DNA from: Abditibacteriaceae bacterium
GTDB lineage: Bacteria > Armatimonadota > Abditibacteriia > Abditibacteriales > Abditibacteriaceae
DNA length: 64,000 nucleotides
Direction: 5' to 3'
Assembly (NCBI GenBank): GCA_036388675.1
Contig: DASVRI010000028.1
Span: 15,944 to 79,943 of the forward strand
A program made the position numbers and the translations under genes. The notes under the pieces were generated by a model. That model ran no database searches, was not told where the DNA came from, and saw only the letters and a list, made by a program, of their open reading frames with translations. Positions 33,155 to 56,183 of the stretch are shown in pieces. The number at the start of each line of letters is the position of its first letter. The stretch's first letter is position 1.

Positions 33155-35209
33155 TTAACCGGGCATGAGCAAATGTCCGGTGCGCCCTTGCCAACCATCA
33201 ATAACGAGCCAGAACAGGATCATGGTTACATCACCAAACGCCAAGCCCAAGAAGGCCGGTGTCGCCTTGCGGTAAGTGTCAATGCCGCCAAAGCGTGTAA
33301 TTAGCACCTTGGCCAGCCAGCCGAGGAAAATTGAAACCCAGAACATCCTCACAGGAAAGATCATGGAGACCAGGTAGCCGAGAGGATGGAATGGGAAAAT
33401 CGGGATGCGGCTGCGTCCCAGCATCATGGCGTAAGTCAGTGCCGCCCCGACTCCCATCCACAACCAGTTGCTCCACGCAGAACCGACGTTGCCCTTCATG
33501 ATCTCATTGATGAACTGCACCGGCGCAACGGGGCCATATTGAGCAAACCAGCGGTGCCCCAGTGACAGCCCACCATTATCGTAGCCCAGCCGCACCACCG
33601 TCCACCAGCTCACCACAACCGAAATAAGAACGACGGCACTGATAAGCCCTGCCAGACGCCGGGGGTGAAGTTGGTGGTCGTGCGCCAGCTTGAAGCTCTG
33701 CACGAAACTTGGCATGATGAAGCCGCGCATGTGAAAAACAATCGTGTTCTGAAAGAATGATGCGGGAATCAATCCGTTGGCTGGAGTCAGCCACTGGCTG
33801 GAGCCGCTGTTGAGCAGCTTGGCTATCGCTCCCAAGGGTGAAGACTGAGCCATCATGAACAGCATTCCCGCTTCGACTGCGACGCGTGTGAGAGCAATAG
33901 ACAGGATGAGATAAGCCAGCCACAATACGACTGCAATGTCAAAACGCACTCCAGCCAGGCAAGTGAACCCCAGCAAAGCAGCAAGCGACGCCATAAATCC
34001 CCAGAATGCAACGGGATAAGACAACACTTCAGTGCGCTCTGAAGGTAGAGCGTCCACACGGCCCAGAGCACGCTGGGCGACGTGTCGCAGGTGAGCCCGT
34101 GCCGTCCACATCACCAGGGCGACGTAAACCAGGCAACAGCCCACGGCTTGATAACCTGTAAACAGCTTCGAGCCGAATAGCACCCCGGAACCAGGCAGTG
34201 CGTTTGGAGAGAAGCCGAAATAGTAAGCCGCGATAAATTGAAAATTGATGAACCAGAAGAAGAACCAGAGCGAGAACGAAACTTCCGATGTCAGCAAGTA
34301 AGCCACACCAATGACGATGGGATAAACATTGATCGGCATCCAGCCGAGCTGATTCCATGGCGCCTCGGTGAGCAGCGGCCCCATATCAATCTCCAGCGGA
34401 AAAGTCGGGACATCGGGATAATAGAGGTGAAGTCCGCGCAGCAGTTGAATAAAGACGGCAATACCAAAGCCGCACCAGGTTAAGGGGTTGCGAAAAAAGC
34501 CGCTGAAGTTCTTACCATCTTCTCGGTCAAGGTCTTCTGTCAGTTCTAATGGAAGGCGCAGCAGGGGGAAAGACAGTGCTTCTTTTTCGGCCCACTGCGC
34601 ACGCAACATGACGCTGAGGCAGCCCAGCATCACGTATGAGCTCAGAACGAAACTGCCCCAGAATAAAAGCGGTATCAACCAGGCATTCCACGGAATCTGC
34701 TCGCTGCCGATTCCAACATACCAGCCCTCAACAACGAGTCGATTGTATTGCCCACCCGCTGCTAAAGCGGGCGTAAGCCAAGGCTTGATATAAGGCTGCA
34801 ATTGTTGTAACCAACCGTTTTCCGGTGTGGCGAAATAGAACGGTGCAACGAGATTGGGAATCACAAAGTTCTCTGCACCGTGGCCCGGAACCAGGGAAGA
34901 GAACATGCAGGTGATGTAGATGGTCAGCGCTTCCTGACGCGTAAAAGCCAACCTTACCGAGATCAGGCGCAGCACAGGATTGATGACGAGTACCAGAATC
35001 AGCAATACGCCAACGGCGCCGGCGGGCAAATGAGTCGCGCCCAGGAAGGTGTTGAACAGCTTGTAGTCAATAACTGGAATGGCATAACCGAACAGCACAG
35101 CCAGCGCGAGAGACAGCACCACAACGCGGAAAGTGACACCGCCGTTGTTTGTGGACAACTTACTTTCAGCATGAGTATGCGGTTCAAGTGAAGCCGAGGG
35201 TGCTTTCAT
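33155..35209 (-). CDS. Large polytopic membrane protein of unknown function, paralog 1 (DUF6785/DUF6784-like by recollection)
   Basis: 684 aa from the ATG at 35209, with many hydrophobic helices. Roughly half its residues are identical to 54093-56183 in aligned blocks (ITFRVV.L.L.LAV.FGY.IP..D.KL.NTF.GA.HLP, SVMLRAQW.E.EAL.FPL.RLPLE.TED, LTSEVSF.WFF.WF, ITRFGGI..YRK..P.FLGLA.GDV.MILFWL..DGWQGR.GH). Confidence 0.8.
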   Translation of the reverse strand: MKAPSASLEPHTHAESKLSTNNGGVTFRVVVLSLALAVLFGYAIPVIDYKLFNTFLGATHLPAGAVGVLLILVLVINPVLRLISVRLAFTRQEALTIYITCMFSSLVPGHGAENFVIPNLVAPFYFATPENGWLQQLQPYIKPWLTPALAAGGQYNRLVVEGWYVGIGSEQIPWNAWLIPLLFWGSFVLSSYVMLGCLSVMLRAQWAEKEALSFPLLRLPLELTEDLDREDGKNFSGFFRNPLTWCGFGIAVFIQLLRGLHLYYPDVPTFPLEIDMGPLLTEAPWNQLGWMPINVYPIVIGVAYLLTSEVSFSLWFFFWFINFQFIAAYYFGFSPNALPGSGVLFGSKLFTGYQAVGCCLVYVALVMWTARAHLRHVAQRALGRVDALPSERTEVLSYPVAFWGFMASLAALLGFTCLAGVRFDIAVVLWLAYLILSIALTRVAVEAGMLFMMAQSSPLGAIAKLLNSGSSQWLTPANGLIPASFFQNTIVFHMRGFIMPSFVQSFKLAHDHQLHPRRLAGLISAVVLISVVVSWWTVVRLGYDNGGLSLGHRWFAQYGPVAPVQFINEIMKGNVGSAWSNWLWMGVGAALTYAMMLGRSRIPIFPFHPLGYLVSMIFPVRMFWVSIFLGWLAKVLITRFGGIDTYRKATPAFLGLAFGDVTMILFWLVIDGWQGRTGHLLMPG

Positions 35210-35542
35210 GAAAATTTGTCCCTTCAAAACTGTGTGTGAGCACAAACTGTAGCTGTTAGATGCCAGGTACCCAAACAGAGTTAAGTTGCCGATAACCGCG
35301 CCGCCCATAAGCGTTTTAAAACCTTTTCTGACGTGAATGCGAGTACTCGAAAGGCTTACACATGGAGGCTTCATGCCAACATTCAACAGCAATACCGAGG
35401 TTCGAAATCGGCTTCAAGCATTTAACCCCGTTGCTCGTTCCTGATTGAAAACCAAGTGCCTCCTTGCATCAACTCAAAGCACACAAACTCTGACGCGAGC
35501 ACTCTTTGCATTAAGTATTGCGGCGCTGCATCCTGCTGCCGC

Positions 35543-38032
35543 TTATTCGGGCTGCGCAACAATTCGCACCGGCCCCAGTAAACCGGAAGAAACCAGAGGC
35601 GAATCCTTGGTGAAGTAATTCCAGGTTGTAAAGGTGTAACGGCCTTTTGAGGGGCGCGGCTGGTTCTTCAAAAACCAATCAGGAAATTCTTTTAGATACC
35701 ACCCGCTTCCAATGTGGCCGGGGAGCCATTCCATGTCGGCGGGCTGCTGCTCATCACCAATTAAGCGATTGGCCCATACATTGGTCACGGCAATTTCCAG
35801 CCTGTTGCTTCTTGCTTTCAGCAGGCCCGCCGGGATTCTAATTCTCCACGGCGCTGTCCAAACCACACCCAAATCGCGGTTGTTGAGCTTCACGGTAGCG
35901 ATATGATTCACGACGCCCAGGTCAAGGTAAAGCGGGGCTTTATTGCCTTGCAAAGTGGGACCGGGGAGATCAAACGACTTGGTGTAAACAGCCGTGCCGC
36001 TATAGTATTTGATTCCAGCGTTGATGTGCTGCGTCCAGTCCTGAAGCGCAGGAAACGTTATCGCCTGTGTCGGGCCGCCCCAGGTAGAATCAAACTTCAC
36101 CCGCCAGGAACCAGTAATTTCTTCGAGCGAGGTTGCATCGGCAAAGTTGGCGACACTGGAAGTTCTCTGCGGCTTGTTTCTAAAGACAATGAAGAAACTC
36201 TGGGAATTTTCAAAGCGAAGCGGTATGTGGGTATATCCATCCGACTCGCTGAACTGCGGCAGGTTACGTATGGAGCCTGTAACCGGATCCCAAAGCTCGG
36301 GCTGTTTGCCCGTAACTTTGAAACGACAGTTCGCAGCACCTGCTGAACGGTTGACATTCGCAACAAAGTAGATGTCGATGCCATTGGCGCTGAGGTGGAT
36401 ATGTTTTATTTCCGGGGCGTCCTGCGTCACGGTGGCCTGGAAGTCATCTGTCGGGGCGACGAAACTGCCCCATTGCAGCAATGCCTGGCAGCGCTGCCAG
36501 TACTCGACAAAGGCCTTGCCAGGCTCCCACCAGGTTTGGGTGCGATCAAAGTGAGTCCCCCACTGCCCCATCGTTGCGCCGGGTTTGTATTTGTCGTCCC
36601 ACGGCTGCTGCACGAAACGGTGCAGCACCATGCGATTGACACCGGCACAAAAAGCGGCATCGCCCATCGACTTTAGCCAGGCGGGCGTCTCGTTCCACCG
36701 GCTGTCCGATGGGTCGCCGGTAAAGGCTTCGGCCTCGATGATGTTTTGCCCGGACTTTCTTAAAGCCGCCACGGTGGGGTCTAATTCGTAGGGTGCATAC
36801 TTGCCTTGATGCGTCCAGAATTCCGTCATGACTTTGTGCACTAAGGGCATGATTTCATCCTGGCGCCACGGGCCTCCGTAAGGTTCGGCCAGAAAAGTAA
36901 GGTTGGCGCCTTTTAGTTTTTTCGAAATGGTGGCGAAGTACACATCGCGGTACAGGTCTTTGATGGTCGCATCAAAATCCTCGCGGAATTTCGCCGACTC
37001 CTGCTCGCTGTCGATGGTGCGTTTGGTGAAGGTGGCCAGGTATGGCAGAAGGTCATATCCCCGGCGCGCTAAGAACTCCTGTCGCATTCTTGGTGTCCAG
37101 GTCGGTACACCCGCTTCGTAACTATCAAAATGCACGTGTGTAAAACCGGTGCCGATTAAATCTCCCAGATGTTTTTGGATTTCACCAATCACATGATCCA
37201 TGTGGAAGTCAACTGCTTGCTGGTTCATCTTGTCGCATTCCAGCCCGGTGGCTTCCCATTGAGCCGGCTGCATCAGCGTTCCCGATGTGGTGTGCCCAAA
37301 CCGATAAATAATCCAATCACCTGCCGGCGCATCCCATTGCAATGCTCCGCTTGCCTGCATTTTGCCGGTTAAATCAATCACACTCTCTTTGGCCACGACA
37401 CCAGTACTCGGAAGAGCGATTACGGCAACATCGCGGTAGTAAGTTCTCCTGGCCGCAATCTCCGGTTTCTCGACGACACCGGTTGTGGGGTTGTAAATTG
37501 GCCACGGCGTATGGCCACGCAAATCGACTTGAGGCCGCGTTAATACAACATTTATGTGCTGGTTGCCGGAAACCTTTGTTTCGGCCCAGCAGATTTCCTG
37601 CATCGAAAGTTCAGGCGTAATCCACGGCCCGCCGCTCGATTCATAGGCCGGCCCGTTGAACATGCCGAAGTCCATTCCCAGACGCTTTGATTCCTGTGCA
37701 GCATGGCGCACCAGTTTCCACCACGGCTCGGTCCACGAAATAAGCTCAGGCGTCGGGCTTTTCTTTATTTCCATTGCCCACGGCGTTGTTATATCCGCAA
37801 GACTGAACATCGTGGTGCGGTTGAAGCCTTCTTTTTTCAAGGCCTCCAGGTCGCGGGTGATGCCTTTTTTACTCAGATTAGAACCCATCCACATCCACAA
37901 TACGCCGGGCTTAGCGCTCGCCGGAGGATTGCGAAAAACCTTGGCCGGGTCGTTCTCGATGCGACTTTGCGACACTCCCGGCCTGGTGCAGACGAACAGC
38001 ACCAGGCATAAAATCAGTAAGATTTTCATCAT
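35543..38032 (-). CDS. Secreted glycoside hydrolase, GH106-like (putative alpha-L-rhamnosidase)
   Basis: Signal peptide present. FRNPPASAKPGVLWMWMGSNLSKKGITRDLEALKKEGF is an N-terminal signature. The C-terminus has a jelly-roll domain (YSGTAVYTKSFDLP...VKLNNRDLGVVW...NRLIGD). Family assignment is from memory. Confidence 0.6.
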   Translation of the reverse strand: MMKILLILCLVLFVCTRPGVSQSRIENDPAKVFRNPPASAKPGVLWMWMGSNLSKKGITRDLEALKKEGFNRTTMFSLADITTPWAMEIKKSPTPELISWTEPWWKLVRHAAQESKRLGMDFGMFNGPAYESSGGPWITPELSMQEICWAETKVSGNQHINVVLTRPQVDLRGHTPWPIYNPTTGVVEKPEIAARRTYYRDVAVIALPSTGVVAKESVIDLTGKMQASGALQWDAPAGDWIIYRFGHTTSGTLMQPAQWEATGLECDKMNQQAVDFHMDHVIGEIQKHLGDLIGTGFTHVHFDSYEAGVPTWTPRMRQEFLARRGYDLLPYLATFTKRTIDSEQESAKFREDFDATIKDLYRDVYFATISKKLKGANLTFLAEPYGGPWRQDEIMPLVHKVMTEFWTHQGKYAPYELDPTVAALRKSGQNIIEAEAFTGDPSDSRWNETPAWLKSMGDAAFCAGVNRMVLHRFVQQPWDDKYKPGATMGQWGTHFDRTQTWWEPGKAFVEYWQRCQALLQWGSFVAPTDDFQATVTQDAPEIKHIHLSANGIDIYFVANVNRSAGAANCRFKVTGKQPELWDPVTGSIRNLPQFSESDGYTHIPLRFENSQSFFIVFRNKPQRTSSVANFADATSLEEITGSWRVKFDSTWGGPTQAITFPALQDWTQHINAGIKYYSGTAVYTKSFDLPGPTLQGNKAPLYLDLGVVNHIATVKLNNRDLGVVWTAPWRIRIPAGLLKARSNRLEIAVTNVWANRLIGDEQQPADMEWLPGHIGSGWYLKEFPDWFLKNQPRPSKGRYTFTTWNYFTKDSPLVSSGLLGPVRIVAQPE

Positions 38033-38154
38033 AGCCATCTCTCCTTTTCCTACACGAACGTTTTCATGGCGGAGTTCTCCAACGGTCACAATTCATTTGC
38101 CGGGAGCAATCGCAGACGCTCCGATCGCAGTAGTCCGTAGAGAAAAGTAGAGGC

Positions 38155-40182
38155 TTAAAAGGTCTTCACTGTTTCTCGGGAAGCCGCTGCGCCGCTCACG
38201 TTAATCGCCGCGACGGCTAAAGCGGACATCCGAGTACTCGCATTGCTTCTCGCGGCACCGTTTTTCGCTCGCACCGTTACAATAGCCGGGCGTGGCGGCT
38301 GCTTCATGCCCGGCCCGACGTAAAACCCTGTGTGCGGCGGCTGGTTGTAGGCGACATTTTGCCACGCGATGCCCATACGGTATGCCGGGTCGTGCATGAA
38401 AGTGTAGAAGCGATGCGTTGTGGGAATGGTTGTGGTGAAGATGCGCAGTTCCTGGTTGTCATTGGTGCGATAGATGACTTCCTCGCGCCAGTCGCCCAGA
38501 ATGTCGGCGGAAAGGCACGGGTTGGCCTTTGTCCCGTTGTTGGAGGCGCAGTCGAAATCCCTCGCATTCAACAACGGGTCGGATTTCGCGTTGAGATAAT
38601 CCCACTTTTCGAGTGTGGTGCCGTTGAGAACTTCACTGAGCAGGTCGCCGTCCCAGTAGATTCCCATGTTGCAGGCCGGAGTGCGATCGGCGATCTTGTT
38701 TCCCTTGACATCCCACATCTGATTGCTTAAACCCGCACCTGCGGCCCAAAACTCGAAGCCGGGATAGCGCGGGTCAACGTCCAGAGCCAGGCCGCGTCCG
38801 GGGCCTTCGCCATCAGCGCCGGCGCTGACCGATGCTTTCTTCCACAGCACTTCGCCCGTCTTGGCATCGACCATGTGAACTCCGGCATCATCGAATCGCT
38901 CCTGGATGCGAAACACTTCGAGGCCCGGTCTGTTCGGATCGAGATCGGAAAGGTGCATGGCGTCGCCGTGTCCCAGGCCGGTTGAATAAAGTCCTGTGCC
39001 GTTATCATCAACGGCCATGCCGCCATAAACGATTTCGTCTTTGCCGTCGCCGTCCACGTCGGCCACGCTCAGGTTGTGATTGCCCTGTGCGGCGAATTTT
39101 TCGTTGCCGGGAGTGTTGCTGTCGAATGTCCAGCGATGCGTTAGTTTGCCCTCGCGCCAGTCCCAGGCCGCCAGTACGGTGCGCGTGTAGTAGCCGCGAC
39201 ACATTACGACACTGGGATGCACGCCGTCAAGATAGGCAACACAGGCCAAGAAGCGGTCAACACGATTGCCGTAACCGTCGCCCCAGACAGCCTTGAGTTC
39301 GTCGGAAGTGGGATCGGGCTTGGCCGGATGGCGCGATGGAATGTAGTTCGTTGTCGAGAGAGCCTTTCCCGTCAGGCCATCGAATACGGTTAGAAACTCC
39401 GGCCCTTTTAGAATGCGACCGGCCTCATTGACATGATTGGCAGTGGCATCACCGATGGCAGTCCCACTGCTATCAATTGTGCCATCCGCCGTTTTACAGA
39501 CCATCTCGGCTTTGCCGTCGCCATCGAGGTCGTACACCATGAACTGCGTATAGTGCGCGCCTTCGCGGATGTTCTTCCCTAGATTAATCGTCCACAGCAG
39601 AGTGCCGTCGAGCTTGTAGGCTTGCAGAATCGGCGGATCGGTTTCGCCATTTTGCGAGTTGTCACGGCCTCGTCCCGCCTGATGCAAAACGATTTCATAC
39701 TCGCCATCGCCGTCCAAATCTGCGACGGAAGCATCATTAGGCGTGTAACCCGGCGGCGTCTGCAAGCGAAGCGAAAGATAAGGCCGCGCCGCCGCATTGG
39801 CAGGGATCGTAAAACGAGTACTCGCCGCTTGCTCCTGGCCGCTCTTTACAGGTCGCACAAAATACGAGTTGGCCTGTGCCGGGTTTGCTGTTGCATCCAC
39901 AAAGTCCGTAGATTGTGTAAGAGTCTTGTTATTCAGCCTGATCGGTTTAGCAGCACCGGCGGCGCGATACAGATTGAAAGAGATGTTCTGCGGGTCGGTG
40001 CCCAACATGCGCCAGCCGACGTACACTTTGCCGTCGCTCTGCCGGATCGCCACCACGCCGCGCCCTAAATCCTCCATCTGCCGTTGCGCTGTGGCGCGGC
40101 GTGGCGGTGAGAGAAACATTGCCCCCATCAGAAGCATTCCCACGCTGACGGCTCTATGACGGTTGATCCATTGTTTCATCAT
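38155..40182 (-). CDS. Rhamnogalacturonan lyase, polysaccharide lyase family 11 (YesW/YesX-like)
   Basis: Signal peptide present. Contains RQMEDLGRGVVAIRQSDGKVYVGWRMLGTD, VADLDGDGEYEIVLHQ, VYDLDGDGKAEMVCKTADGT and VADVDGDGKDEIVYG. Confidence 0.85.
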   Translation of the reverse strand: MMKQWINRHRAVSVGMLLMGAMFLSPPRRATAQRQMEDLGRGVVAIRQSDGKVYVGWRMLGTDPQNISFNLYRAAGAAKPIRLNNKTLTQSTDFVDATANPAQANSYFVRPVKSGQEQAASTRFTIPANAAARPYLSLRLQTPPGYTPNDASVADLDGDGEYEIVLHQAGRGRDNSQNGETDPPILQAYKLDGTLLWTINLGKNIREGAHYTQFMVYDLDGDGKAEMVCKTADGTIDSSGTAIGDATANHVNEAGRILKGPEFLTVFDGLTGKALSTTNYIPSRHPAKPDPTSDELKAVWGDGYGNRVDRFLACVAYLDGVHPSVVMCRGYYTRTVLAAWDWREGKLTHRWTFDSNTPGNEKFAAQGNHNLSVADVDGDGKDEIVYGGMAVDDNGTGLYSTGLGHGDAMHLSDLDPNRPGLEVFRIQERFDDAGVHMVDAKTGEVLWKKASVSAGADGEGPGRGLALDVDPRYPGFEFWAAGAGLSNQMWDVKGNKIADRTPACNMGIYWDGDLLSEVLNGTTLEKWDYLNAKSDPLLNARDFDCASNNGTKANPCLSADILGDWREEVIYRTNDNQELRIFTTTIPTTHRFYTFMHDPAYRMGIAWQNVAYNQPPHTGFYVGPGMKQPPRPAIVTVRAKNGAARSNASTRMSALAVAAINVSGAAASRETVKTF

Positions 40183-40254
40183 CTTGCCTTTTGATCGCCT
40201 TCAACTGACACTCCTCATCTTCGGTGGAGCTAAGCCCTGGACCGATTACAAGCT

Positions 40255-42744
40255 TTATGCATCGCCCTTCTGCGGAGCACTCTGCTGCGGAGCATTCTGT
40301 GCAAGTGCGACAATCTCTTCTGCTGTGAGGGCGGATTCGTAAACCCGCAGTTCGTCCATGAGACCTTTGAACGGAACATCCTGCCAGTTGACACCCAGCG
40401 CGAAGGTGCCGGTCGTTGTCGTGAATACGTTTGGAAAATTTGTTCCGCTAAATTGCGGGGCGCCATTCACATAAACGGTTATGGCTCCGTCCCGCACGGC
40501 AAAGGAGAGGTGCGTCCATACGTTTACCGGGATCTTCATTTTGGTCAAGGCATCATACCAGGATGCACTGCCCGCCCAAACCATCGTTTCGTTGTTCAAA
40601 AAGCCAAGCCCCATCGGCACGACGCTGACCCAGTTATCCCGGTCTCTGGCCCCAAAGAAGGTGGTCGTAATTTCTGTAAGCTGCGCGGGCTTTACCCATA
40701 GCGCAACCGAGTACTCGTTGCCGGAAAGCATGCCCCTGGGCAGGAGGATGCCGGAAGCGCCGTCGAACACCGCCGCATTGCCGCGAACGCCGGTTGCGAA
40801 CGTGATCTTGCCGCCCGTGTTGTTGATGCGATTTCCAACAATGGAACCGTTAGCGGCGCGGCCTGTGCTGTCTTTGAGATTGCCATCGAATGCGTAATGC
40901 GCGACCAGGCCGCCTGCGGATTTCTCTTTTACCGTTATGCTAAAGGCCTTCGTCGCGGTTGCTGCGCCCAGCGTGATGGTGGCCGTGAGGATGGCCCTCG
41001 CATTACCCGCACCCACTTCGGGCCGGGTCACGGCACCCTCGTTGGAGACGACCTTTTGATTTGAAGAAACCCAGGTGATGCGGCTCTGCCGGGTGCCTTC
41101 GGTGGGCAGGGACAAGTTCGTGATGACGCTGCTCCTGGTATCGCCCAGAGTGAGCGCGCGCTGCACATCCGCAACAATTTGCGCGGGTGTTTTATCCGGT
41201 ATCTTGCTGCCCCAGATGGCGACGCCCTGCTTCGATAGCGCGCTGAACGTGAGAACATAGCTTTGCGAATCCGGCTCCCACTGGCGCACTGCAACGCCAT
41301 CAAATAGTTGGTCTCCAACGGTAATTGCGATGCTGTTATCGCCGGCTGTCTTCCATGTGCCGTTGACTGCGCCGGTGATTCTGCCGTCTTGCTCCAGGCG
41401 AATGTACTGCGACTTGTGAATCTCTTTGGAAATGGCTTTGCCGTGGTTCACATACTTGTATTCGCCCGCCACGTCTTGCCGCCTGATGGTGCCGGCTGTT
41501 TCACCAGCATAGCGATAGGGCGCGACCACCGGCCAGTCGTTCTGGTTCATGAACATCTGGTGAACGCGGAGTTGATGCGCTTCGCCGCGCTGTGGGAATC
41601 GCGCATGAAAGATGAGGAACATCTTGCCCGTAGCCGGATCGTAATAGGCCGAGTTGTGGCCTGGAGACACATACCCGATGCCCAGCCCGCTGCCCGGATC
41701 GCCGACTTTGCGCTCGAAGAGGAAGTTGCCCATCAACTTAACGCCGTAAGGCTCGATGGAGAGATTATCGAACAGCGGTTTTCTAGGATCGGATTGAACG
41801 TCAGCCATATCGTTACCTTCGGCATCGAAATAAGGGCCGTCAGGACCAGTGGAGCGCGCTACGCGGATGTTATAGCCGCTGGCTGCATCCAGGCCGCCGA
41901 AGGAAGCGAACATATAGTAGAACCTGGTCTGCGGGTGATATAGAATGTAGCCACCTTCAATGGGGCTGTGATTCCCGCCGATCAGCCTCTTGCCATAGCC
42001 TTGTCCGGGCAATTGCTTCCCGGTCGTCTCATCCATCTTCAGGATAAAGAGACCACCGGAAAACGAGCCGTAGATCATCCACAACTGGCCATCGTTGTCG
42101 TAGAAAGTGTCCGGATCGACAGCGTTGGGGTGACGGCGCGCATTGTAGCCGGTACCATCCTCACCTAGCTCCTGCCACATGCCCGACTTGAGCAGAATGC
42201 CCAGGTTCTTATAGGGGCCTTCCACCTTGTCGGCCACCGCAACGCCCAGTGCAGAGCGCGGAGCATTGCCTTTGGTGACGTTGTAATACATGTAGAAGCG
42301 TCCGTCTTTCAGTTGAATGACATCCGTAGCCCACAGCGCACGCGACTGCGTCCAGGCGAAAGCCTCCTTCAACTCTTCCAGAATATTGTCGAACAGACGG
42401 TTCGGGTTCGGTTGGGCCGGATCACCGATTCGCGCATAGTTGATGTCGGACGCGACCATGTCCCACTGCATGAAATCCCTGGTCTTGGCCGCCGCCAGGT
42501 GAGAGCCGAAGACGTAGAAGGTGTCGCCCACTTTGATAACCGATGGGTCATGCACGGCGGCATCTCGAAACACCGGCGCGCGCGGCTCCTGACTAACGGC
42601 GCGGGATCTCTGCCGGCTTGGTACGGTTTGCACGGCAGCCATATCCTTCGCAGGCGTCGATGTGGCGCACGCCAGCCCGCACGAGATCATCAGCGAGATC
42701 GCCACCGAAGTCGTCAGAATGTTTCGCCGTCGGCATTTGCTCAT
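40255..42744 (-). CDS. GH43 arabinanase/arabinofuranosidase-like enzyme with Ig-like and LamG (concanavalin-like) C-terminal domains
   Basis: Signal or lipoprotein N-terminus. Contains VHDPSVIKVGDTFYVFGSH, AVDPDTFYDNDGQLWMIYGSF and IEGGYILYH. LamG region reads LVAHYAFDGNLKDSTG...LMDELRVYESALTAEEI. Confidence 0.85.
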   Translation of the reverse strand: MSKCRRRNILTTSVAISLMISCGLACATSTPAKDMAAVQTVPSRQRSRAVSQEPRAPVFRDAAVHDPSVIKVGDTFYVFGSHLAAAKTRDFMQWDMVASDINYARIGDPAQPNPNRLFDNILEELKEAFAWTQSRALWATDVIQLKDGRFYMYYNVTKGNAPRSALGVAVADKVEGPYKNLGILLKSGMWQELGEDGTGYNARRHPNAVDPDTFYDNDGQLWMIYGSFSGGLFILKMDETTGKQLPGQGYGKRLIGGNHSPIEGGYILYHPQTRFYYMFASFGGLDAASGYNIRVARSTGPDGPYFDAEGNDMADVQSDPRKPLFDNLSIEPYGVKLMGNFLFERKVGDPGSGLGIGYVSPGHNSAYYDPATGKMFLIFHARFPQRGEAHQLRVHQMFMNQNDWPVVAPYRYAGETAGTIRRQDVAGEYKYVNHGKAISKEIHKSQYIRLEQDGRITGAVNGTWKTAGDNSIAITVGDQLFDGVAVRQWEPDSQSYVLTFSALSKQGVAIWGSKIPDKTPAQIVADVQRALTLGDTRSSVITNLSLPTEGTRQSRITWVSSNQKVVSNEGAVTRPEVGAGNARAILTATITLGAATATKAFSITVKEKSAGGLVAHYAFDGNLKDSTGRAANGSIVGNRINNTGGKITFATGVRGNAAVFDGASGILLPRGMLSGNEYSVALWVKPAQLTEITTTFFGARDRDNWVSVVPMGLGFLNNETMVWAGSASWYDALTKMKIPVNVWTHLSFAVRDGAITVYVNGAPQFSGTNFPNVFTTTTGTFALGVNWQDVPFKGLMDELRVYESALTAEEIVALAQNAPQQSAPQKGDA

Positions 42745-42947
42745 TGGTTTCGCCTCAGCCGGTTGCGAGCCGCCGTGTCGGACGGGTTTCTCAAGGACAT
42801 CACTTCACTGCCTGCACAATTACGTTTCTCACCTTGTATCTTGCGCCCCTACATAGGGTTTTAAATCACTTGTAGGCATGGGGCCACAACTGCCTGGAAA
42901 GAGAATCCAAGGGGATGCCCTCGGTGAAACGCGGACACCAGCCAGTT

Positions 42948-48241: not shown

Positions 48242-48400
48242 TGACCGTTCTCCGCTGCTTTACGAGTGCGTCTGAGGCACTTGTGCGCCGCATTCGACAC
48301 GCGGCTTAAAGTTGGGGTATCCGGCGCCATGTTTAGCAATACATTCATTGCAAATTCCGCTGCTGTCGAGTGCAGTCGTGCAGCAGCATCCATTTTGATT

Positions 48401-50905
48401 TTAACGCGCGCTCTTCAAACGAAGAATCGTGACGGAGCGTGCCGGAAATGTGCGAGTCGCACTCGAAGCCGTCAGCCTGACTGGCTCGGTATGAGGCAAT
48501 ACTCTGTCGGGTGCAGCAAGAGTATTTTCATCCAGCCCGTTAGCCGAAGTCAGCACCAGAGCGTTACCCGTCAATGCCACATTGCCCAGCCCGCGCAGAT
48601 TAACGGCGGTTTCCACAGGTTGTTCCGACACGTTAACCACTTTCACAACCGTTTCTGCCGTTGTATTGTCACGCCCGGCCACGGCATAAAGAGACGGCGA
48701 AGTTTGTGTCACAGCATGAACGAGTTGGCCGTCCAGGTAGCACTTGATGGATGTGCCTTGCAGTTCAACCCGAATGTCATACCAGCGCCCTGTTTCGATG
48801 CGCCCCGGCACTTGCACCAGCGGCACGTTGGCCACTTCAAGGCCGTGTCCCGTGTTGCCCCACCCGCCTAAGTTCCAATGGCTGACTGCGTTGTCGCTGG
48901 GTGTGCGGAACATGATAAGAAAGCCCTCATTGCCGCTCAACTTGCGTGCTTTCAAAGTCAGGGTGTAGTCGCTCCACGTCACATCACCGGCAAAGGCTCG
49001 CGCGCCTTCCTGGGAGCCGGTCTGCCGCAAGACGCCATCCTCCACCTGCCAGTTGCCGCGCGTCGTTCTCCAGGTGTTATTTAGTCCCTGTGAAAAATCG
49101 CTGGCGAAGAGCGTTTGATCGCCCGCAGTGACTTTGATGTCTTTGAATTCGGCCTGTGTCGCCCACGTTCCAACGCCGACTCTGCCGCGCAGAGCTTCGG
49201 CTGGCGTGGGCGGCTGCTCTATTTGAACCGGCAGCACGATATCCGCGCGATTGGCGCCGAACATCGTCTGCACATGATAAGACGGCGTGCCGTAAATTTG
49301 TCGCTGGTCGAACACAATGGCGTTCGGGTTCCAGGCCTTCCAACCCAGGCGGCTTAACAGCGGCGCGTAGGACGACATCATCACAATGTCTCCATTGCGC
49401 TCCAGGCCGGTCATGAAAGCGGCTTCGGCGATGGCAGCCTGCAAGTTGCCGGTACCGGCGGCGCTGGTTACTGCATACTCACCAAAGTAAATTTTTGCCC
49501 CTTGCCGGTCGTAGCTGTCAAACCGTGTGGCCTGGTTAATCATTGTTTGCGGATTGCTGTAAAGGTGCGGGTCAACGATGTCGAGGGGACGATTGCGCGG
49601 CACGCCGCTCCAGTCGCAGGCCACAAGTTGAATTTGCGGATAGCGAGCCTTGATGGCATCGTGGAACAGCGCGTAGCGCTCGTGGTATACCGGGCCGCCG
49701 TTTTCATTGCCGATTTCAAGGTATTTCAGGTTGAACGGCCTGGGATGCCCGGCCTGCGCGCGCAACGCGCCCCATTTGCTGGTGACGGGGCCATTCGCGT
49801 ACTCGATGGCGTCTAAAGCATCTTGCACCCATTCACCCATGTTTTCCATCGGAACAGCATAGGCGTTGCTTCTGCCGTTGTGGTGCGACATGCCGCAGTT
49901 GATGACGAAAAGCGGTTCGGCACCCAGGTCCTCGCACATCTGAAGATACTCGTGGTAGCCCAGCCCGTCGGTAGAGCGATAGCCCCACAGGTTCCAGCGT
50001 CCCGGACGCGCCGCAATGTCGCCGATGGTTTCCTTCCAGCGAAAAGCATTTTCAATCTCATCGCCTTCCACAAAGCAGCCGCCGGGGAAACGCAAAAATG
50101 CCGGACGCAGGCGTTCAATGTAACTCATCAGGTCGGCGCGCAGACCATTGCGACGGCCTTTCCATGTATCGCGTGGAAACAGAGAAACCATGTCGAGCCA
50201 TACGGTGCCCGGTTTGGTCGTGGAGAGTACTAAACGTGCATGGGCATCGGTCGCCCTGGCGGTAAGCGGGAAGGTGAACTTTTTCCACGACTCGTCGATG
50301 CCGCTGATGGTGCGCAGAGCCAGCACGCTGCCGTTTTGCGTTTCCAGTGAGACGACCAGCGGGCCACTGAAATGAGCCGCGCGTGCATACAACGAAAAAT
50401 CGTATTGCTTGCCTCGCTCGACTGCAATGCCGCCGGACTCGTTCTCAAACCGGGCCAGCCACTCGGTCGGTGTTTCCCGCGGGCGCTGCGGAACACCGGC
50501 GAAGCCGTTGCTCACCACGCCAACGCGACCTCCGCTCGCTTCATTGATGTCAAGCCGCAGGCTGGTGGGGTTTTTGGCATTGAGCGGCTTGCTCGTGTCC
50601 AATGCCAGCTTTGCTACGGCTTGCCGACTTTTTGTCAGCGTCCAGGCGAGTGGAAACGCGGCGTCCTCAAACGAGCGGTTTTGCACCATCTCAGCGTAGA
50701 TGCCGCCGTCGCCAGCGCGGTTGATTTCTTCGAAGAAAATGCCATACAGCAATGGGCTGATGGCTGCTCCAGGCTTATCGACATCCACCGTCAGGCGAGC
50801 CGCCGGCTGAGCCAGCAGCGGGGTTGCCGATAGCAGGCCGGCAAACGCAGTCGCGGCTAAGCGGAAGGGAAAGGTCTTGATTCTTGGCATATTATTTTTT
50901 CGCAT
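48401..50905 (-). CDS. Secreted GH51 alpha-L-arabinofuranosidase, large form with CBM-like and DUF1080/LamG-like insertions
   Basis: Signal peptide present. Contains ISPLLYGIFFEEINRAGDGGIYAEMVQNRSFE, LRFPGGCFVEG and YLEIGNEN. Inserted jelly-roll region reads WRTTRGNWQVEDGVL...IKCYLDGQLVH. Confidence 0.8.
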   Translation of the reverse strand: MRKNNMPRIKTFPFRLAATAFAGLLSATPLLAQPAARLTVDVDKPGAAISPLLYGIFFEEINRAGDGGIYAEMVQNRSFEDAAFPLAWTLTKSRQAVAKLALDTSKPLNAKNPTSLRLDINEASGGRVGVVSNGFAGVPQRPRETPTEWLARFENESGGIAVERGKQYDFSLYARAAHFSGPLVVSLETQNGSVLALRTISGIDESWKKFTFPLTARATDAHARLVLSTTKPGTVWLDMVSLFPRDTWKGRRNGLRADLMSYIERLRPAFLRFPGGCFVEGDEIENAFRWKETIGDIAARPGRWNLWGYRSTDGLGYHEYLQMCEDLGAEPLFVINCGMSHHNGRSNAYAVPMENMGEWVQDALDAIEYANGPVTSKWGALRAQAGHPRPFNLKYLEIGNENGGPVYHERYALFHDAIKARYPQIQLVACDWSGVPRNRPLDIVDPHLYSNPQTMINQATRFDSYDRQGAKIYFGEYAVTSAAGTGNLQAAIAEAAFMTGLERNGDIVMMSSYAPLLSRLGWKAWNPNAIVFDQRQIYGTPSYHVQTMFGANRADIVLPVQIEQPPTPAEALRGRVGVGTWATQAEFKDIKVTAGDQTLFASDFSQGLNNTWRTTRGNWQVEDGVLRQTGSQEGARAFAGDVTWSDYTLTLKARKLSGNEGFLIMFRTPSDNAVSHWNLGGWGNTGHGLEVANVPLVQVPGRIETGRWYDIRVELQGTSIKCYLDGQLVHAVTQTSPSLYAVAGRDNTTAETVVKVVNVSEQPVETAVNLRGLGNVALTGNALVLTSANGLDENTLAAPDRVLPHTEPVRLTASSATRTFPARSVTILRLKSAR

Positions 50906-50972
50906 TGTTATGTTCTTTATTACCCATCCAGCGAATTGAGTACTCGGATGTGATGAGCAAACGTCGATAGCG

Positions 50973-52508: not shown

Positions 52509-52585
52509 TACGACTCCTCTTGTGTTGTTATGTTGTTTGCGCCGTGTGGACGTGCAAAATCCGGCGGCTTTCGAAGCGCTCCAGA

Positions 52586-52615
52586 GTAGTGGTTCCGAGT
52601 ACTCGGAACCACTAC
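52586..52615 (-). terminator. 30-bp perfect palindrome centred on GAGTACTC (intercistronic hairpin)
   Basis: GTAGTGGTTCCGAGTACTCGGAACCACTAC. Lies 23 nt downstream of the GH43-ricin stop (52638) and 78 nt upstream of the abfA start (52508). No clear U-tract. Confidence 0.45.
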
Positions 52616-52637
52616 CTCAATGGATGCCATGTAGTGC

Positions 52638-54086
52638 TCACGGCAGTCTCTTGAATATCCATTGTTGGCCGATGTCGCCTTTCCAGGCATGTCCTTCTAC
52701 CAGAGCCTGTGGTGCTTTCGTTCCACCCGGCAGCGTGAGTGCGGTTGCGCCACCTTTGGAGATGATGCGATAAGTATCCTCGCCCGTTTGCTCGATGCGC
52801 CATCGCTGACAATCGTTATTCAACCAGGGATACTGGCCAATCCTGGTGCCGTCCTTGGCACTGCACTCGGCAAGATCCATGTGTTTTCCGCTGCCCAGCG
52901 AACTGATGCTATAGTAGCCGCCGCCCACCGGGCTGACGTTCCACTGCTGCATTGCGCCGCCCCCGTATTCGAATTGGTCGATAGGTGTGCCGTCGTCCCA
53001 CGAGGCTTTGTGTATGCCAAGAGCCAATCCGCTGGCCCTGGAAATAATGGCGTAACGCCCACCGGGTAAGTCGGAGCCGGCGCGTGGCCATCCGTCTTTG
53101 CCCCACACCAGCGTTTGCAGGCCCATGGTCGCCACGCCGTTGTTGAGCGAATCGTAATAGTGGTAGGTGAAGCGATCAAATCCATCCTCACTAAAGATTC
53201 CGATATGTCCCGGCCCAATGACCTGGCCATCCGTAGTGAGAAACGGCGTGCCTCCACCTTTCGCCAAATCTTTGCCCGCCTTATCCAGGTAAGGGCCGGT
53301 GATTGTTTTGGAACGACCCATCATAACGCTGTAAGTGCTGCTCATGCCGCGACAGCAGAAACCCTCATTCTCAAAAAGGTAGTAATAGCCATTATTGTAA
53401 TAGAGGTAGGGTGCTTCGGGGCCAAGACTTTGGCCGGCAGCGATTGTCACCGGCTGGCTGATGGGCTTACCGCTCATCTTATCCAACTTCACCAATTTGA
53501 TGCCGCCGCTGTTCCACGAGCCGATGCTGAGCCAGAGATCGCCCTGTGCATCCAGAATGGGGGCCGGGTCGATGGCATTGTAATCGGACTCTGTGGTGGT
53601 GGCGAGCACGACTCCCTGATCCATCCATTTGAAATCCGGGCTTTCCGGGTCGAGCGTGGGGCTGGTTACCAGCCCCGTAGCCGAAACTTTGCTGCCGAAA
53701 GTGGAAAACGAATAAAAGAGATAGTATTTGTTGTTGAGAAAAATGACATCCGGCGCCCAGGTGTGATCGTTCTTAGCCAGTGGCACCGCCTTGCGCGCCC
53801 ATTCGGGGACCTTGTCGAGAACGCTCTTACCCCTTGTCCAGTTGATCAGGTCGGTCGAGTACCGCATTCCGATGTTGTTGCCGGTGTGAAAGACATAATA
53901 TTTGCCGGCGCACTTGATGATGCGTGACGGGTCGTGTACTCGGCTGAATTCTCCCGTTAATACCATTGCATTGCCCTTCTTTATTGGTGCGAGCACCCCA
54001 GGTGACCACATTAACAGAAAACATAAAAACGAGCAGCACGCCATATACGTGGTAAAAAGTGCTTGTCTATTCATGGAAAATCTCAT
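52638..54086 (-). CDS. Secreted GH43 arabinanase-like enzyme with a C-terminal ricin-type beta-trefoil (CBM13-like) domain
   Basis: Contains VHDPSRIIKCAGKYYVFHTG, WAPDVIFLNNKYYLFYS and EAPYLYYNNGYYYLF. Lectin region reads QQWNV...DCQRWRIE...GQQWIF. Confidence 0.85.
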   Translation of the reverse strand: MRFSMNRQALFTTYMACCSFLCFLLMWSPGVLAPIKKGNAMVLTGEFSRVHDPSRIIKCAGKYYVFHTGNNIGMRYSTDLINWTRGKSVLDKVPEWARKAVPLAKNDHTWAPDVIFLNNKYYLFYSFSTFGSKVSATGLVTSPTLDPESPDFKWMDQGVVLATTTESDYNAIDPAPILDAQGDLWLSIGSWNSGGIKLVKLDKMSGKPISQPVTIAAGQSLGPEAPYLYYNNGYYYLFENEGFCCRGMSSTYSVMMGRSKTITGPYLDKAGKDLAKGGGTPFLTTDGQVIGPGHIGIFSEDGFDRFTYHYYDSLNNGVATMGLQTLVWGKDGWPRAGSDLPGGRYAIISRASGLALGIHKASWDDGTPIDQFEYGGGAMQQWNVSPVGGGYYSISSLGSGKHMDLAECSAKDGTRIGQYPWLNNDCQRWRIEQTGEDTYRIISKGGATALTLPGGTKAPQALVEGHAWKGDIGQQWIFKRLP

Positions 54087-54092
54087 CTTTCA

Positions 54093-56183
54093 TTAATCGG
54101 GTGTCAGGTGGTGGCCCACGCGCCCCTGCCATCCATCGACAAGAAGCCAGAACAAAATCATGAAGACATCGCCCAATGCCAGGCCCAGGAACATGGGCCG
54201 TGTCTTGCGGTAGCTTTCAATGCCGCCAAAGCGTGTAATCAGCACCTTGCACAACCAACCGACAAAAATTGAAAACCACACCTGATCCATTGTCCAGGTG
54301 AGGCTCATCAGGAATCCCAACGGATGCAGCGGAAACCACAGCAGGCGGCTACGCGCCAGAATCAACGCATAGGTAAAGAGAACTCCCATCAGCAGCCACA
54401 GCCCATTGGCCCAGGTTGCGCTGTCCACGCCTCGGTACAAGTCGTTGGAAAACCAGGCCGGCAATTGCGATCCATGCTTGACGAAAAACCAACTGCCCAG
54501 TGTCAGCGCGCCGTGTTCATAGCCCAATCGGATGCGCATCCAGCAACTCATGCCAAAAGTGATAAGCATGACAGCGAAGATAAGAGCAAGCAGCTTACGA
54601 CCGGGAATGTTGTGATCATAAGCCAGTTTAAACCCTTGGACAAAACTGGGCATCGAAAAGGCGCGCGGATCGCCGACTAACCCGGTGCTGAGAAAGTTTG
54701 CTTGCACCAGGCCATTTTGCGGCGACAGCCAGGTGGCCGGCCCCGAGTTGAAGACCTGCCCGAGTACTCCCAACGGTATCCAGTTGGGTGTCATCAGCAA
54801 CAAGCCGCCTTCAACGACAAGGCGTGTCAGGGCAATCACCATCGCCAGAATCATCAGCCAGATGACCAGCGTTACATCCGGGCGAATGCCGGCCAGCATA
54901 CCCCATGCAAGGATGAAGGCCGACGATGCGATAAAACCCCAGAAAGCGAAGGGATATGACATTGCCTCATTCTCTTCTCCGGGTGATGCCTGGACGCGAT
55001 GAAACGCCCGGCGCGCGATGTGCCCGAAGTGTCGTCGTCCTATCCAAAGCACGAGAACAGCGTAAGCGATGAAGCCGCCAATGCGCTGATAGCTGACGAA
55101 GCTCTTGCCCCAGGCCATTAAACCGTTCGGCATGATGTTGGGCATAAAGCCGCAGTAATAGGCGACGATAAGCTGGAGTTTGACAAACCAGTAGAAAAAC
55201 CAGAACGAGAACGAAACTTCACTTGTGAGCAAATACGTGATGCCGACCACGATGGGCCACACGTAAATTGGCGTTCCAATCGGGCCGTGCATCTGGTTCC
55301 ACGGCGCCTCGCTAAACATCGGGCCGGTATCGATATTCAGCGGCACGCGCGGCACGTCGGGAAAATACAGGTTCAGTCCATTGAGCAACTGAATGAAGAC
55401 GGCGATGCCAAAGCCAACCCACATAATGGGGTTGCGAAAAAAGCGTCCGAGTACTCCATACTGATCGGGACGATCGACATCTTCGGTCATCTCAAGAGGC
55501 AAACGGTTGAGCGGGAAAGCCAGTGCTTCGTGTTCGCCCCACTGGGCGCGCAGCATGACACTGAGGCAGGCCAGGGATCCATACATCGCAAAGATGAGCG
55601 ATCCCCAGGCGACAAGCGGCACGAACCAGGCCCCCCAGGGAATTGTGTCGCTCCCGGACAAACCGTTATACCAACCGTCAACAACTTTGTGGCCGATGGG
55701 GCCGTATGTGCCGCCGTCCGCGTGAAGAGCCGGTGTCATCCACGACGGCAGGTGTTCGTGCCACATCTCAAGCCAATTGTTCTCACGCGTCGCATAATAA
55801 AAGGGTGCAAGCAGTTGCGAGATAAATAATCCCTCACCGCCATGTCCCGGCACCAGAGTCGAAAAGAGGCACGTAATGTAAACCGTCAGAATCTCGTTGC
55901 GCGAAAATGCAAACCGCCGCCCCAACAAGCGCAAGAGCGGGTTAATCACCAACAACAAAGCGAGCAACACACCAACGGCGCTGGGCGGCAGGTGCTGCGC
56001 GCCCATGAAGGTGTTGGACAACTTCACATCAACAATGGGAATGACGTAGCCGAAAAAAACAGCCAGCCCCAGACACAGGAGCACGACACGGAAAGTGATA
56101 CCACCCTCTCGCGCTGAGGTATCTGCCACCGCCGCAACAGGTGCTTCGCTCGCTTGCTGATTTTGTAGTTCAACCTTAGCCAT
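54093..56183 (-). CDS. Large polytopic membrane protein of unknown function, paralog 2
   Basis: 696 aa, paralogous to 33155-35209. Its stop lies 7 nt upstream of the GH43-ricin start, and its start abuts the stop of the CRTAC1-like gene (TAAATG). Confidence 0.8.
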   Translation of the reverse strand: MAKVELQNQQASEAPVAAVADTSAREGGITFRVVLLCLGLAVFFGYVIPIVDVKLSNTFMGAQHLPPSAVGVLLALLLVINPLLRLLGRRFAFSRNEILTVYITCLFSTLVPGHGGEGLFISQLLAPFYYATRENNWLEMWHEHLPSWMTPALHADGGTYGPIGHKVVDGWYNGLSGSDTIPWGAWFVPLVAWGSLIFAMYGSLACLSVMLRAQWGEHEALAFPLNRLPLEMTEDVDRPDQYGVLGRFFRNPIMWVGFGIAVFIQLLNGLNLYFPDVPRVPLNIDTGPMFSEAPWNQMHGPIGTPIYVWPIVVGITYLLTSEVSFSFWFFYWFVKLQLIVAYYCGFMPNIMPNGLMAWGKSFVSYQRIGGFIAYAVLVLWIGRRHFGHIARRAFHRVQASPGEENEAMSYPFAFWGFIASSAFILAWGMLAGIRPDVTLVIWLMILAMVIALTRLVVEGGLLLMTPNWIPLGVLGQVFNSGPATWLSPQNGLVQANFLSTGLVGDPRAFSMPSFVQGFKLAYDHNIPGRKLLALIFAVMLITFGMSCWMRIRLGYEHGALTLGSWFFVKHGSQLPAWFSNDLYRGVDSATWANGLWLLMGVLFTYALILARSRLLWFPLHPLGFLMSLTWTMDQVWFSIFVGWLCKVLITRFGGIESYRKTRPMFLGLALGDVFMILFWLLVDGWQGRVGHHLTPD

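Follow-up and report, generated by a model that had tools for sequence, protein, structure and literature searches.

Two DUF6785/DUF6784 membrane proteins of an Abditibacteriaceae pectin/arabinan locus as predicted Yellow-Stripe-fold transporters and candidate oligosaccharide importers

How do the products of secreted pectin- and arabinan-degrading enzymes enter a cell whose degradation locus encodes no recognisable sugar importer? The question is raised by a 64-kb stretch of an Abditibacteriaceae genome (hereafter the window, the whole of the DNA that was analysed), in which two long open reading frames (ORFs), 33155–35209 (paralogue 1) and 54093–56183 (paralogue 2), encode polytopic membrane proteins of the families DUF6785 and DUF6784. 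A preliminary description of this DNA had proposed that they form a new family of oligosaccharide importers. We think it moderately probable that both are inner-membrane secondary transporters with the OPT/Yellow-Stripe fold, importing the oligosaccharides that the enzymes of this locus release.

Signal peptides were judged by eye from the N-termini. A signal or lipoprotein peptide is present on the GH106 and PL11 enzymes, both GH43 proteins, the long GH51, the CE15 esterase and the FG-GAP protein (lipobox). None is present on GH127, GH29 (start at M64), the 511-residue GH51 or the kinase/GalT block, and glycosidic substrates must therefore reach the cytoplasm. The preliminary description had counted GH127, GH29 and GH51 as lacking signal peptides; this holds for all three types, but the long GH51 is secreted and only the 511-residue enzyme is cytoplasmic. 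Pfam scans of the window's main ORFs (at least about 130 residues, coding strands) identified no ABC, MFS, SSS, PTS, TRAP or TonB/SusCD component, so the reported absence of a canonical sugar transporter is borne out across the 64 kb. The one other transporter in the window is a CDF cation-efflux protein (25615–26790). Canonical sugar-importer Pfam domains were likewise absent from the two paralogues and from 71 divergent relatives. The two DUF6785 proteins are the sole importer candidates in this 40-kb pectin/arabinan locus.

The two ORFs are paralogous over their full length, far above chance, as had been recognised from the sequence: BLASTP aligned 684 residues with 697 bits, 55% identity, 70% positives and 10 gap positions. 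The family named in the preliminary description was also correct. The DUF6785 model (PF20581) matched paralogues 1 and 2 with E-values of 1e-171 and 1e-169 (572 and 565 bits, cut-off 25), covering all 498 profile positions, and was followed C-terminally by DUF6784 (PF20580; E 8e-32 and 2e-35, 110 and 121 bits, cut-off 26.4). These were the sole Pfam matches of both proteins, each above the gathering threshold, and an NCBIfam scan of both matched no model. In paralogue 1 the longest ORF would begin with the TTG at 35392, whereas both the family N-terminus and the public gene call agree with ATG 35209. Two public proteins from one 125,847-bp contig, here P0119 and P0001, are the translations of 33155–35209 and 54093–56183, respectively (P and L numbers denote proteins and loci of our collection). 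A literature search found no mention of DUF6785 or DUF6784, and searches on Abditibacteriota transporters and on OPT together with polysaccharide-utilisation loci (PULs) found nothing relevant.

Modelled with AlphaFold2 from 71 homologues, paralogue 2 gave a confident model with a mean predicted local distance difference test score (pLDDT) of 88.4 and a predicted template-modelling score (pTM) of 0.89. When this model was searched against the PDB with Foldseek, two matches were significant, both to barley Yellow Stripe 1 (HvYS1): 7wsr_A and 7wst_A, the latter being the same protein with ligand. The match to 7wsr_A had an E-value of 1e-7, a probability of 1.00 and a template-modelling (TM) score of 0.62 (query) or 0.70 (target) over about 700 columns at 15% identity, and the next match after YS1 had an E-value of 0.08 and a TM score of 0.09. 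The model of P0285, a 39%-identical relative from a quite different genomic context (pLDDT 92.1), again gave YS1 as its sole significant match (E 3e-8, TM 0.64/0.70). AlphaFold2 weights are older than the YS1 structure, and the match therefore does not reflect a memorised template. Of the two domains of HvYS1, for which no structural homologue was reported when the structure was solved, one is the ‘YS core’, containing helical hairpins and a discontinuous helix, and the other a scaffold that cradles it; the protein is a proton-driven symporter, for which an elevator mechanism was proposed (PMC9691689). About 29 helices, broken and hairpin helices included, are seen in the model of paralogue 2, and a crude hydropathy count gave 9–11 membrane segments. 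Members of the OPT superfamily have 16 (or 17) transmembrane segments, derived from an internal duplication; aligning the N-terminal with the C-terminal half of the DUF6785 protein by hhalign, as an internal-repeat test, gave P 0.034. On the Foldseek matches, the predicted fold of both paralogues is of the YS1 type, a secondary-transporter fold.

Unannotated polytopic proteins of this large size, with their long periplasmic loops, could also be exporters or flippases, glycan polymerases of the glycosyltransferase-C (GT-C) or O-antigen type, or membrane sensors of glycan availability, and a hybrid histidine kinase does recur near the family (10 of 81 loci, see below). Neither of the two independent models matched a GT-C, O-antigen-polymerase (Wzy), flippase or sensor fold significantly; YS1 alone appeared at E ≤ 0.001. 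Similarity to GT-C proteins or O-antigen polymerases, set beforehand as refuting the importer hypothesis, was not found among the 50 best Foldseek matches of either model or by Pfam. Pfam detected no signalling domain in proteins of the family, and all characterised OPT members are cation:solute symporters working in the uptake direction (PMC3061005). An exporter, polymerase or sensor is accordingly disfavoured, and we consider it very unlikely. Because the characterised OPTs are all uptake symporters, the paralogues are probably inner-membrane, proton-coupled importers of the elevator type. The transporter half of the oligosaccharide-importer hypothesis is in this way supported by Foldseek.

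At the level of sequence the relation to OPT proteins is distant. The Pfam OPT model (PF03169) matched neither ORF at E ≤ 1, all 71 divergent relatives matched both DUF6785 and DUF6784, and PDB chain sequences searched with paralogue 2 alone (phmmer) or with a hidden Markov model (HMM) of 119 relatives gave no YS1 match. Profiles of the OPT side were built from yeast Opt1 and maize YS1 query sequences that were validated against databases: the Opt1 query matched PF03169 with 556 bits (E 1.8e-166) and was 100% identical to P0333, and the maize YS1 query matched 7wsr_A with 1189 bits, in an alignment that supplied the true HvYS1 sequence. A tblastn search of plasmids with Opt1 found no match, and a metagenome scan gave intron-containing plant Yellow-Stripe-like (YSL) fragments only and no bacterial OPTs. 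With hhalign, the DUF6785 profile gave nothing significant against Opt1 alone, P 0.1 (not significant) against a 3-sequence alignment and P 0.011 against a stitched YSL profile, the same segment being aligned each time. Against a 78-sequence profile of the PT clade, P was 0.006 over 150 columns around the DLK...PPR signature. The merged PT and YSL profile, which is shallow (Neff about 4, no bacterial OPT sequences), was alone in giving a usable, if weak, signal, with a probability of 30% and P 5.6e-4 over 276 columns, and a longer alignment to it ran through 557 co-linear columns (P 0.004), from residues 23–672 to YS1 30–638 as extracted, or 43–651 in native numbering.

The residues of paralogue 2 that pair with HvYS1 are among the most conserved of DUF6785. 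E97 corresponds to E114 (native numbering; AFSRNE against PFTRQE) and Y129 to Y146. The P..W..P...W motif pairs P182, W186, P189 and W193 with P157, W160, P163 and W167, and the YPSG region pairs R212 and P224 with R187 and P199. G314 and G345 correspond to G277 and G310, K519 and R529 to K496 and K506 within the OPT DLK...PPR signature, P621 to P601, and G671 and D672 to G650 and D651, of which D651 lines the YS1 cavity. Identity to HvYS1 at the aligned most-conserved sites is 14 of 43, against 10.6% overall; these identities are supportive and not independent, because hhalign itself favours such pairings. Our reading is that DUF6785/DUF6784 do belong to the OPT superfamily, as a very remote branch: they lie outside PF03169, the relation holds at the level of the fold, and profile comparison at most leans towards it. 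The proteins are therefore not a new family outside the known transporter classes, as had been supposed, and instead would be a highly diverged branch with the already known OPT/YSL fold (Transporter Classification, TC, 2.A.67), a class that the preliminary description had not listed among those it looked for.

The gene arrangement ties paralogue 2 to its enzymes. Every gene from 63450 down to 32045 lies on the minus strand, in the order xylose-isomerase-like TIM barrel, CE15, LacI, DUF1559 pseudopilin-like protein, 84-residue lipoprotein, FG-GAP/ASPIC lipoprotein and paralogue 2; then GH43-ricin, GH51, long GH51, GalT-like, IMPase-like, GHMP kinase and GH29; and finally GH43-LamG, PL11, GH106, paralogue 1 and a 2-hydroxyacid dehydrogenase, with GH127 standing apart at 20.8 kb (Table 1). 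Pfam scans returned the neighbours as previously named (GH43-LamG, PL11, GH106, GH43-ricin, CRTAC1-like, pseudopilin, GH127, GH29 and GH51). The stop codon of the FG-GAP gene abuts the ATG of paralogue 2 (0 nt) and the ATG of GH43-ricin lies 6 nt past its stop; paralogue 2 is translationally coupled to both genes. Paralogue 1 has GH106 333 nt upstream and the dehydrogenase 138 nt downstream. The 333-nt gap makes it less sure that this gene is transcribed together with the enzymes before it, so that placement in an enzyme operon, claimed for both paralogues, is better supported for paralogue 2. The stop and start codons of the salvage block overlap (−4 and −1 nt). A terminator-like hairpin (42924–42907) lies between GH29 and GH43-LamG, just upstream of the latter; apart from it, scans for consensus promoters and terminators gave counts at or below shuffle expectation.

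Table 1 Features of the window around the two paralogues (positions in the window)
Feature	Position	Strand	Basis and remarks
CE15 glucuronoyl esterase (secreted) and xylose-isomerase-like TIM-barrel protein, cluster head	61067..63450	-	Pfam, N-terminus inspection
LacI-family sugar-responsive repressor, upstream of paralogue-2 operon	59588..60649	-	Pfam
DUF1559 (SBP_bac_10) protein, prepilin N-methylation motif, pseudopilin-like	58669..59502	-	Pfam; likely start M29 at 59418
84-residue Q/P-rich lipoprotein	58343..58597	-	Lipobox VTGC; no Pfam match
FG-GAP/ASPIC-UnbV (CRTAC1-like) lipoprotein	56184..58088	-	Pfam; lipobox LTEGC after M50; longest ORF to 58235
Paralogue 2, DUF6785+DUF6784 polytopic membrane protein, 696 residues, predicted OPT/YSL-fold symporter	54093..56183	-	Pfam, AlphaFold2, Foldseek
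GH43 + ricin-B lectin enzyme, secreted	52638..54086	-	Pfam, signal peptide
GH51 alpha-L-arabinofuranosidase, cytoplasmic, 511 residues	50973..52508	-	Pfam; no signal peptide
Long GH51 arabinofuranosidase with LamG-like insert, secreted	48401..50905	-	Pfam, signal peptide
Sugar-1-phosphate salvage block (GalT-like uridylyltransferase, IMPase-like, GHMP kinase), cytoplasmic	44917..48241	-	Pfam
GH29 alpha-L-fucosidase, cytoplasmic, start M64	42948..44873	-	Pfam, N-terminus inspection
GH43 + LamG enzyme, secreted, heads paralogue-1 gene string	40255..42744	-	Pfam, signal peptide
PL11 rhamnogalacturonan lyase, secreted	38155..40182	-	Pfam RGL11_C E 1e-219; signal peptide
GH106 alpha-L-rhamnosidase-like enzyme, secreted	35543..38089	-	Pfam, signal peptide
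Paralogue 1, DUF6785+DUF6784 protein, 684 residues	33155..35209	-	
D-2-hydroxyacid dehydrogenase	32045..33016	-	Pfam; 138 nt downstream of paralogue 1
GH127 beta-L-arabinofuranosidase, cytoplasmic	20831..22735	-	Pfam; no signal peptide

The family extends well beyond this locus. When 1.84 billion representative proteins were searched with the family profile, 6,026 clusters (50% identity) matched at E ≤ 1e-3, and 2,139 of them reached E ≤ 1e-30. Scanning reference genomes with two peptide patterns gave 180 relatives, from which the best 80 loci were kept; these belong to Abditibacteriota, except for a few labelled Armatimonadota or unclassified, and a group about 38% identical also carries the label Armatimonadota. 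Copy numbers per genome are lower bounds, because two patterns were scanned and 80 loci kept: at least 10 genes in 9 loci of one metagenome-assembled genome, at least 7 in another and at least 6 in the complete genome AP024152. The culturable species Abditibacterium utsteinense carries members (L020, L057). Among the long members Pfam found no fusion to a carbohydrate-active enzyme (CAZyme) or binding domain, one PhyH fusion and one FeoB_Cyto-like insert, the latter helical and in P0224. Insertions of 200–700 residues with no Pfam match lie between or inside DUF6785 and DUF6784 in P0184 (1278 residues), P0195 (1463 residues), P0159, P0267 and P0231.

The neighbours of the family were ORFs called in the 80 loci and then clustered. 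A universal partner gene was rejected, no neighbour cluster being found in more than 17 of 81 loci; a DUF1559 pseudopilin cluster occurs in 17, LacI in 12 and the hybrid histidine kinase already mentioned in 10. Sulfatase, GH2, GH26-like, GH43, GH51, GH29, CE15, GFO/IDH/MocA, zinc-dependent alcohol dehydrogenase (Zn-ADH) and SurA-like peptidyl-prolyl isomerase (PPIase) genes also recur, and when 117 immediate neighbours were scanned together with Pfam, the leading matches were GH26, GH43, SurA-type PPIase, sulfatase, ricin, GDSL and GH2. The order DUF6785 then GH43-ricin is repeated in the orthologous loci L002–L004 and L006. The pseudopilin, lipoprotein and FG-GAP genes were considered as a conserved cassette and rejected, since the FG-GAP cluster is found in just 4 loci.

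CAZyme labels were assigned by BLAST against seeds, and the counts are lower bounds: a CAZyme or sulfatase gene stands no more than 3 genes away from 29 of the 68 DUF6785 genes, and a sugar-related gene is equally close to 43 of the 68. The share of CAZyme-labelled genes was 12.2% within 2 positions against 3.0% at 5 or more positions (odds ratio 4.5, Fisher p 2e-6), an enrichment that is biased upward because the seeds came partly from this window and from recurrent neighbours. Another 35 polytopic proteins of the 81 loci were scanned, of which 6 are ABC permeases (BPD_transp_1); most DUF6785 clusters have no other transporter. For distant members, 9 contexts were sampled with precomputed Pfam annotation. 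Two are clear sugar clusters, L082 (GH10, pseudopilin, GFO/IDH/MocA, TIM barrel) and L126 (SASA, GDSL, GH2, PhyH, GHL6, GH63-like, pectate-lyase-like), and L081 is mildly sugar-related (PGM, TIM barrel, RbsD/FucU). Linkage to CAZymes is thus strong in Abditibacteriota and present in some other lineages, and is not family-wide; the expected co-localisation of homologues with such enzymes holds for the phylum but not for the whole family, where about 3 of the 9 distant members lie in sugar clusters and 3 by peptidase or housekeeping genes.

If the proteins are OPT-like, their cargo might instead be peptides, glutathione-like compounds or metal chelates, and they would then stand among CAZymes because Abditibacteriota genomes are packed with them. 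The fold and motifs tie them to a superfamily whose characterised cargo is peptides and metal chelates, peptide transport is the prediction for most OPTs of prokaryotes (PMC3061005), and distant members adjoin Peptidase_M55, Peptidase_MA_2, Peptidase_S55 and M28 genes. Against such a cargo, paralogue 2 is coupled to GH43 and FG-GAP lipoprotein genes under a LacI-type sugar repressor, Pfam scans found no peptidase gene in this locus, and CAZymes are enriched 4.5-fold in near over far genes of the same loci. A complement of at least 10 paralogues in a genome, each in a different enzyme context, also fits glycan uptake better. We regard peptide or chelate import as unlikely.

Another cargo has to be considered in view of the PhyH Fe(II)/2-oxoglutarate dioxygenases, which were observed in 4 of 294 near genes and 0 of 454 far genes. 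They lie at 31182–31883 (+) in the window, in L041, in L078 and, directly downstream of DUF6785, in L126 (10060–10821); in P0019 (L007) the domain is fused to the C-terminus of the transporter (residues 732–938). The recurrence and the fusion suggest functional coupling and a cytoplasmic C-terminus. With PhyH within 3 genes in 3 reference loci, in this window and in L126, and with 2-hydroxyacid dehydrogenase, Zn-ADH, GFO/IDH/MocA, CE15 and GDSL esterases as neighbours, the imported compounds could be wall products other than oligosaccharides: monosaccharides, uronates, or non-sugar decorations and their products. The cytoplasmic exo-glycosidases GH127, GH29 and GH51 need glycosidic substrates inside the cell, and OPT cavities take ligands of about 300–900 Da, larger than monosaccharides (PMC3061005); on these grounds a cargo of this kind is improbable.

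Several observations weigh against oligosaccharide import by OPT-type proteins. The Pfam OPT model was touched by one of the 71 divergent relatives, at the noise-level E-value of 0.023 in a scan at E ≤ 10 that also gave unrelated matches just as weak, and the hhalign probability to OPT is just the 30% given above. The proposed YS1 proton sites D446, D490 and D494 (TM8-H6/TM9) align, at low confidence, with N467, S513 and G517 of paralogue 2; since these aspartates are not conserved, the coupling chemistry cannot be transferred. Given the gap to GH106, paralogue 1 may be transcribed on its own, and the CAZyme enrichment carries the bias described. In L009, L018 and L040, ABC permease genes (BPD_transp_1) adjoin the DUF6785 gene, just upstream. 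The distant members in L083, L084 and L085 stand alone, by housekeeping genes or by Peptidase_M55, Peptidase_MA_2 and Peptidase_S55, and the contexts of L124, L125 and L127 are uninformative. All told, 5–6 of the 9 distant members stand alone or near peptidases. As distant members adjoin peptidases, a peptide-type ancestral function, such as is predicted for most prokaryotic OPTs, is plausible.

The ABC permeases bear on how far the argument from absence extends. Because some Abditibacteriota loci carry them, the DUF6785 family is not the sole sugar-uptake option in these genomes; the earlier argument that oligosaccharides must be imported by these proteins applies to this locus only. In L009, L018 and L040 two uptake systems thus lie side by side, in L018 with an apparent solute-binding protein gene as well.

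Import of oligosaccharides by the two paralogues would work as follows. The secreted or lipid-anchored PL11, GH106, two GH43, long GH51 and CE15 enzymes would cut rhamnogalacturonan and arabinan side chains outside the cytoplasm. Each DUF6785 protein would import its own set of small oligosaccharides, probably disaccharides to tetrasaccharides, similar in size to the tri- to octapeptides and metal chelates that known OPTs carry; arabinan-type products would pass through paralogue 2 and rhamnogalacturonan-type products through paralogue 1. Uptake would probably be driven by the proton gradient through an elevator-type movement of a transport core against a scaffold domain. Cytoplasmic GH127, GH29 and GH51, together with the kinase/uridylyltransferase block, would complete the breakdown, and the LacI repressor would control the paralogue-2 operon. 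We infer the direction of transport, which ion is coupled and, foremost, that the substrate is a sugar, the oligosaccharide cargo being deduced from genomic context. Candidate coupling residues are the nearly invariant E97, E219, E322, R454/E458, K519, K646 and D672.

The closest relatives in structure are HvYS1 and the YSL clade (TC 2.A.67, PF03169). They share with DUF6785 the overall fold (TM 0.62–0.70 over about 700 columns, for two family members), a length of about 650–700 residues, the co-linear motifs F-[ST]-R-[NQ]-E, P..W..P...W, LR...[FY]P, FK...[RK] and GD and, as we would expect, cation-coupled uptake by an elevator mechanism. They differ in that identity is 10–15% and DUF6785 is missed by the Pfam OPT model and by HMM search of PDB sequences. 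HvYS1 is a plant protein carrying Fe(III)-phytosiderophore, with proposed proton-site aspartates that paralogue 2 lacks, whereas the DUF6785 proteins are bacterial (Abditibacteriota/Armatimonadota) with a context that points to plant-cell-wall oligosaccharides. The PT-clade OPTs (S. cerevisiae Opt1/Hgt1, CaOPT1, AtOPTs) belong to the same superfamily and are proton-coupled importers of hydrophilic oligomers of 300–900 Da, but they are eukaryotic, carry peptides or glutathione and have no detectable pairwise similarity to DUF6785. Characterised members of the superfamily carry hydrophilic oligomers of about 300–900 Da: peptides of three to eight residues, glutathione and metal chelates (PMC3061005).

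Oligosaccharide carriage by an OPT-type protein has one precedent: the Bacteroides subcluster 4C (Gomolplitinant & Saier 2011) was predicted, from context alone, to take up xylan oligosaccharides (PMC3061005). Like DUF6785, subcluster 4C is prokaryotic and OPT-type, and its gene shares a transcript with genes for a glycoside hydrolase and a sugar-type regulator (PMC3061005). Its members are canonical PF03169 proteins of Bacteroidetes and Acidobacteria, whereas DUF6785, which we set apart from 4C by description, is a separate and far more divergent lineage with a massive paralogue expansion. In organisation, the SusC/SusD systems of Bacteroidota and the ABC CUT1 and MFS importers of Gram-positive PULs offer a parallel: each enzyme cluster has its own transporter gene and regulator, and a genome holds many paralogues that differ in their CAZyme surroundings; their fold and energy coupling are unrelated, and no TonB-dependent receptor, SusD or ABC component is encoded in this locus. 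What is new, then, is that DUF6785/DUF6784 can be assigned, on the strength of models, to the OPT/YS1 fold, that in Abditibacteriota the family has undergone massive expansion and lies within CAZyme operons, and that its members are the only importer candidates here. It is possible, though we advance it tentatively, that the PUL-like loci of Abditibacteriota rely mainly on DUF6785/DUF6784 proteins as substrate-specific oligosaccharide:proton symporters, with paralogue expansion tracking glycan specificity.

Further observations concern associated genes. DUF1559 proteins with a prepilin N-methylation motif are encoded at 14863–15612 (+) as well as 58669–59502 (−) of the window, and also in the distant L082; DUF1559 (SBP_bac_10) proteins are familiar chiefly from genomes of the Planctomycetes type. 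A longer DUF6785 subfamily (about 740–760 residues) occurs in L030, L034, L039, L057, L061, L067, L071 and L072, at about 8–13.5 kb of each, and in 8 of these 8 loci a SurA-like PPIase follows directly downstream on the same strand, a periplasmic chaperone gene adjoining that of an inner-membrane transporter. A divergent GH26-like gene lies upstream in L034, L039, L057, L067 and L072, and one is also present in L038 and L046. In the long GH51, the LamG/3-keto-disaccharide-hydrolase-like insert (residues 610–738) falls inside the Alpha-L-AF_C match (475–824).

Elsewhere in the window, a 1174-residue protein (9096–12620, −) combines BNR/Sortilin-Vps10 repeats with a HYDIN/ASH-type Ig domain and is followed, with a 4-nt overlap, by an ORF of 176 residues without annotation (12617–13147). 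Between GH127 and the CDF transporter, SUKH-1 (SMI1/KNR4; 22928–23551, −) adjoins an Imm5-like gene (23721–24218, −); both are typical polymorphic-toxin immunity proteins, and no toxin gene was recognised nearby. In the first 8000 positions the G+C content is about 50%, lower than the roughly 55% of the rest; they hold few long ORFs, a DUF2442 gene (1569–2039) and one tRNA (4438–4510, −), and may be an integrated or degraded mobile element beside the tRNA.

If the two paralogues do import oligosaccharides, carbohydrates would become a third substrate class of the OPT/Yellow-Stripe elevator fold, until now associated with peptides and metal chelates, and a family of unknown function with at least 6,000 clusters at 50% identity would acquire both a fold and a function. 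DUF6785 proteins would be functional counterparts of SusCD or ABC CUT1 and would account for the import of plant-cell-wall fragments without SusCD in an almost unstudied phylum of soil and cryosphere. Their genes would mark polysaccharide-utilisation loci in Abditibacteriota and related lineages, with the enzyme neighbourhood of each paralogue serving as a hypothesis for its substrate. The prediction is directly testable, because A. utsteinense can be cultured and carries members of the family.

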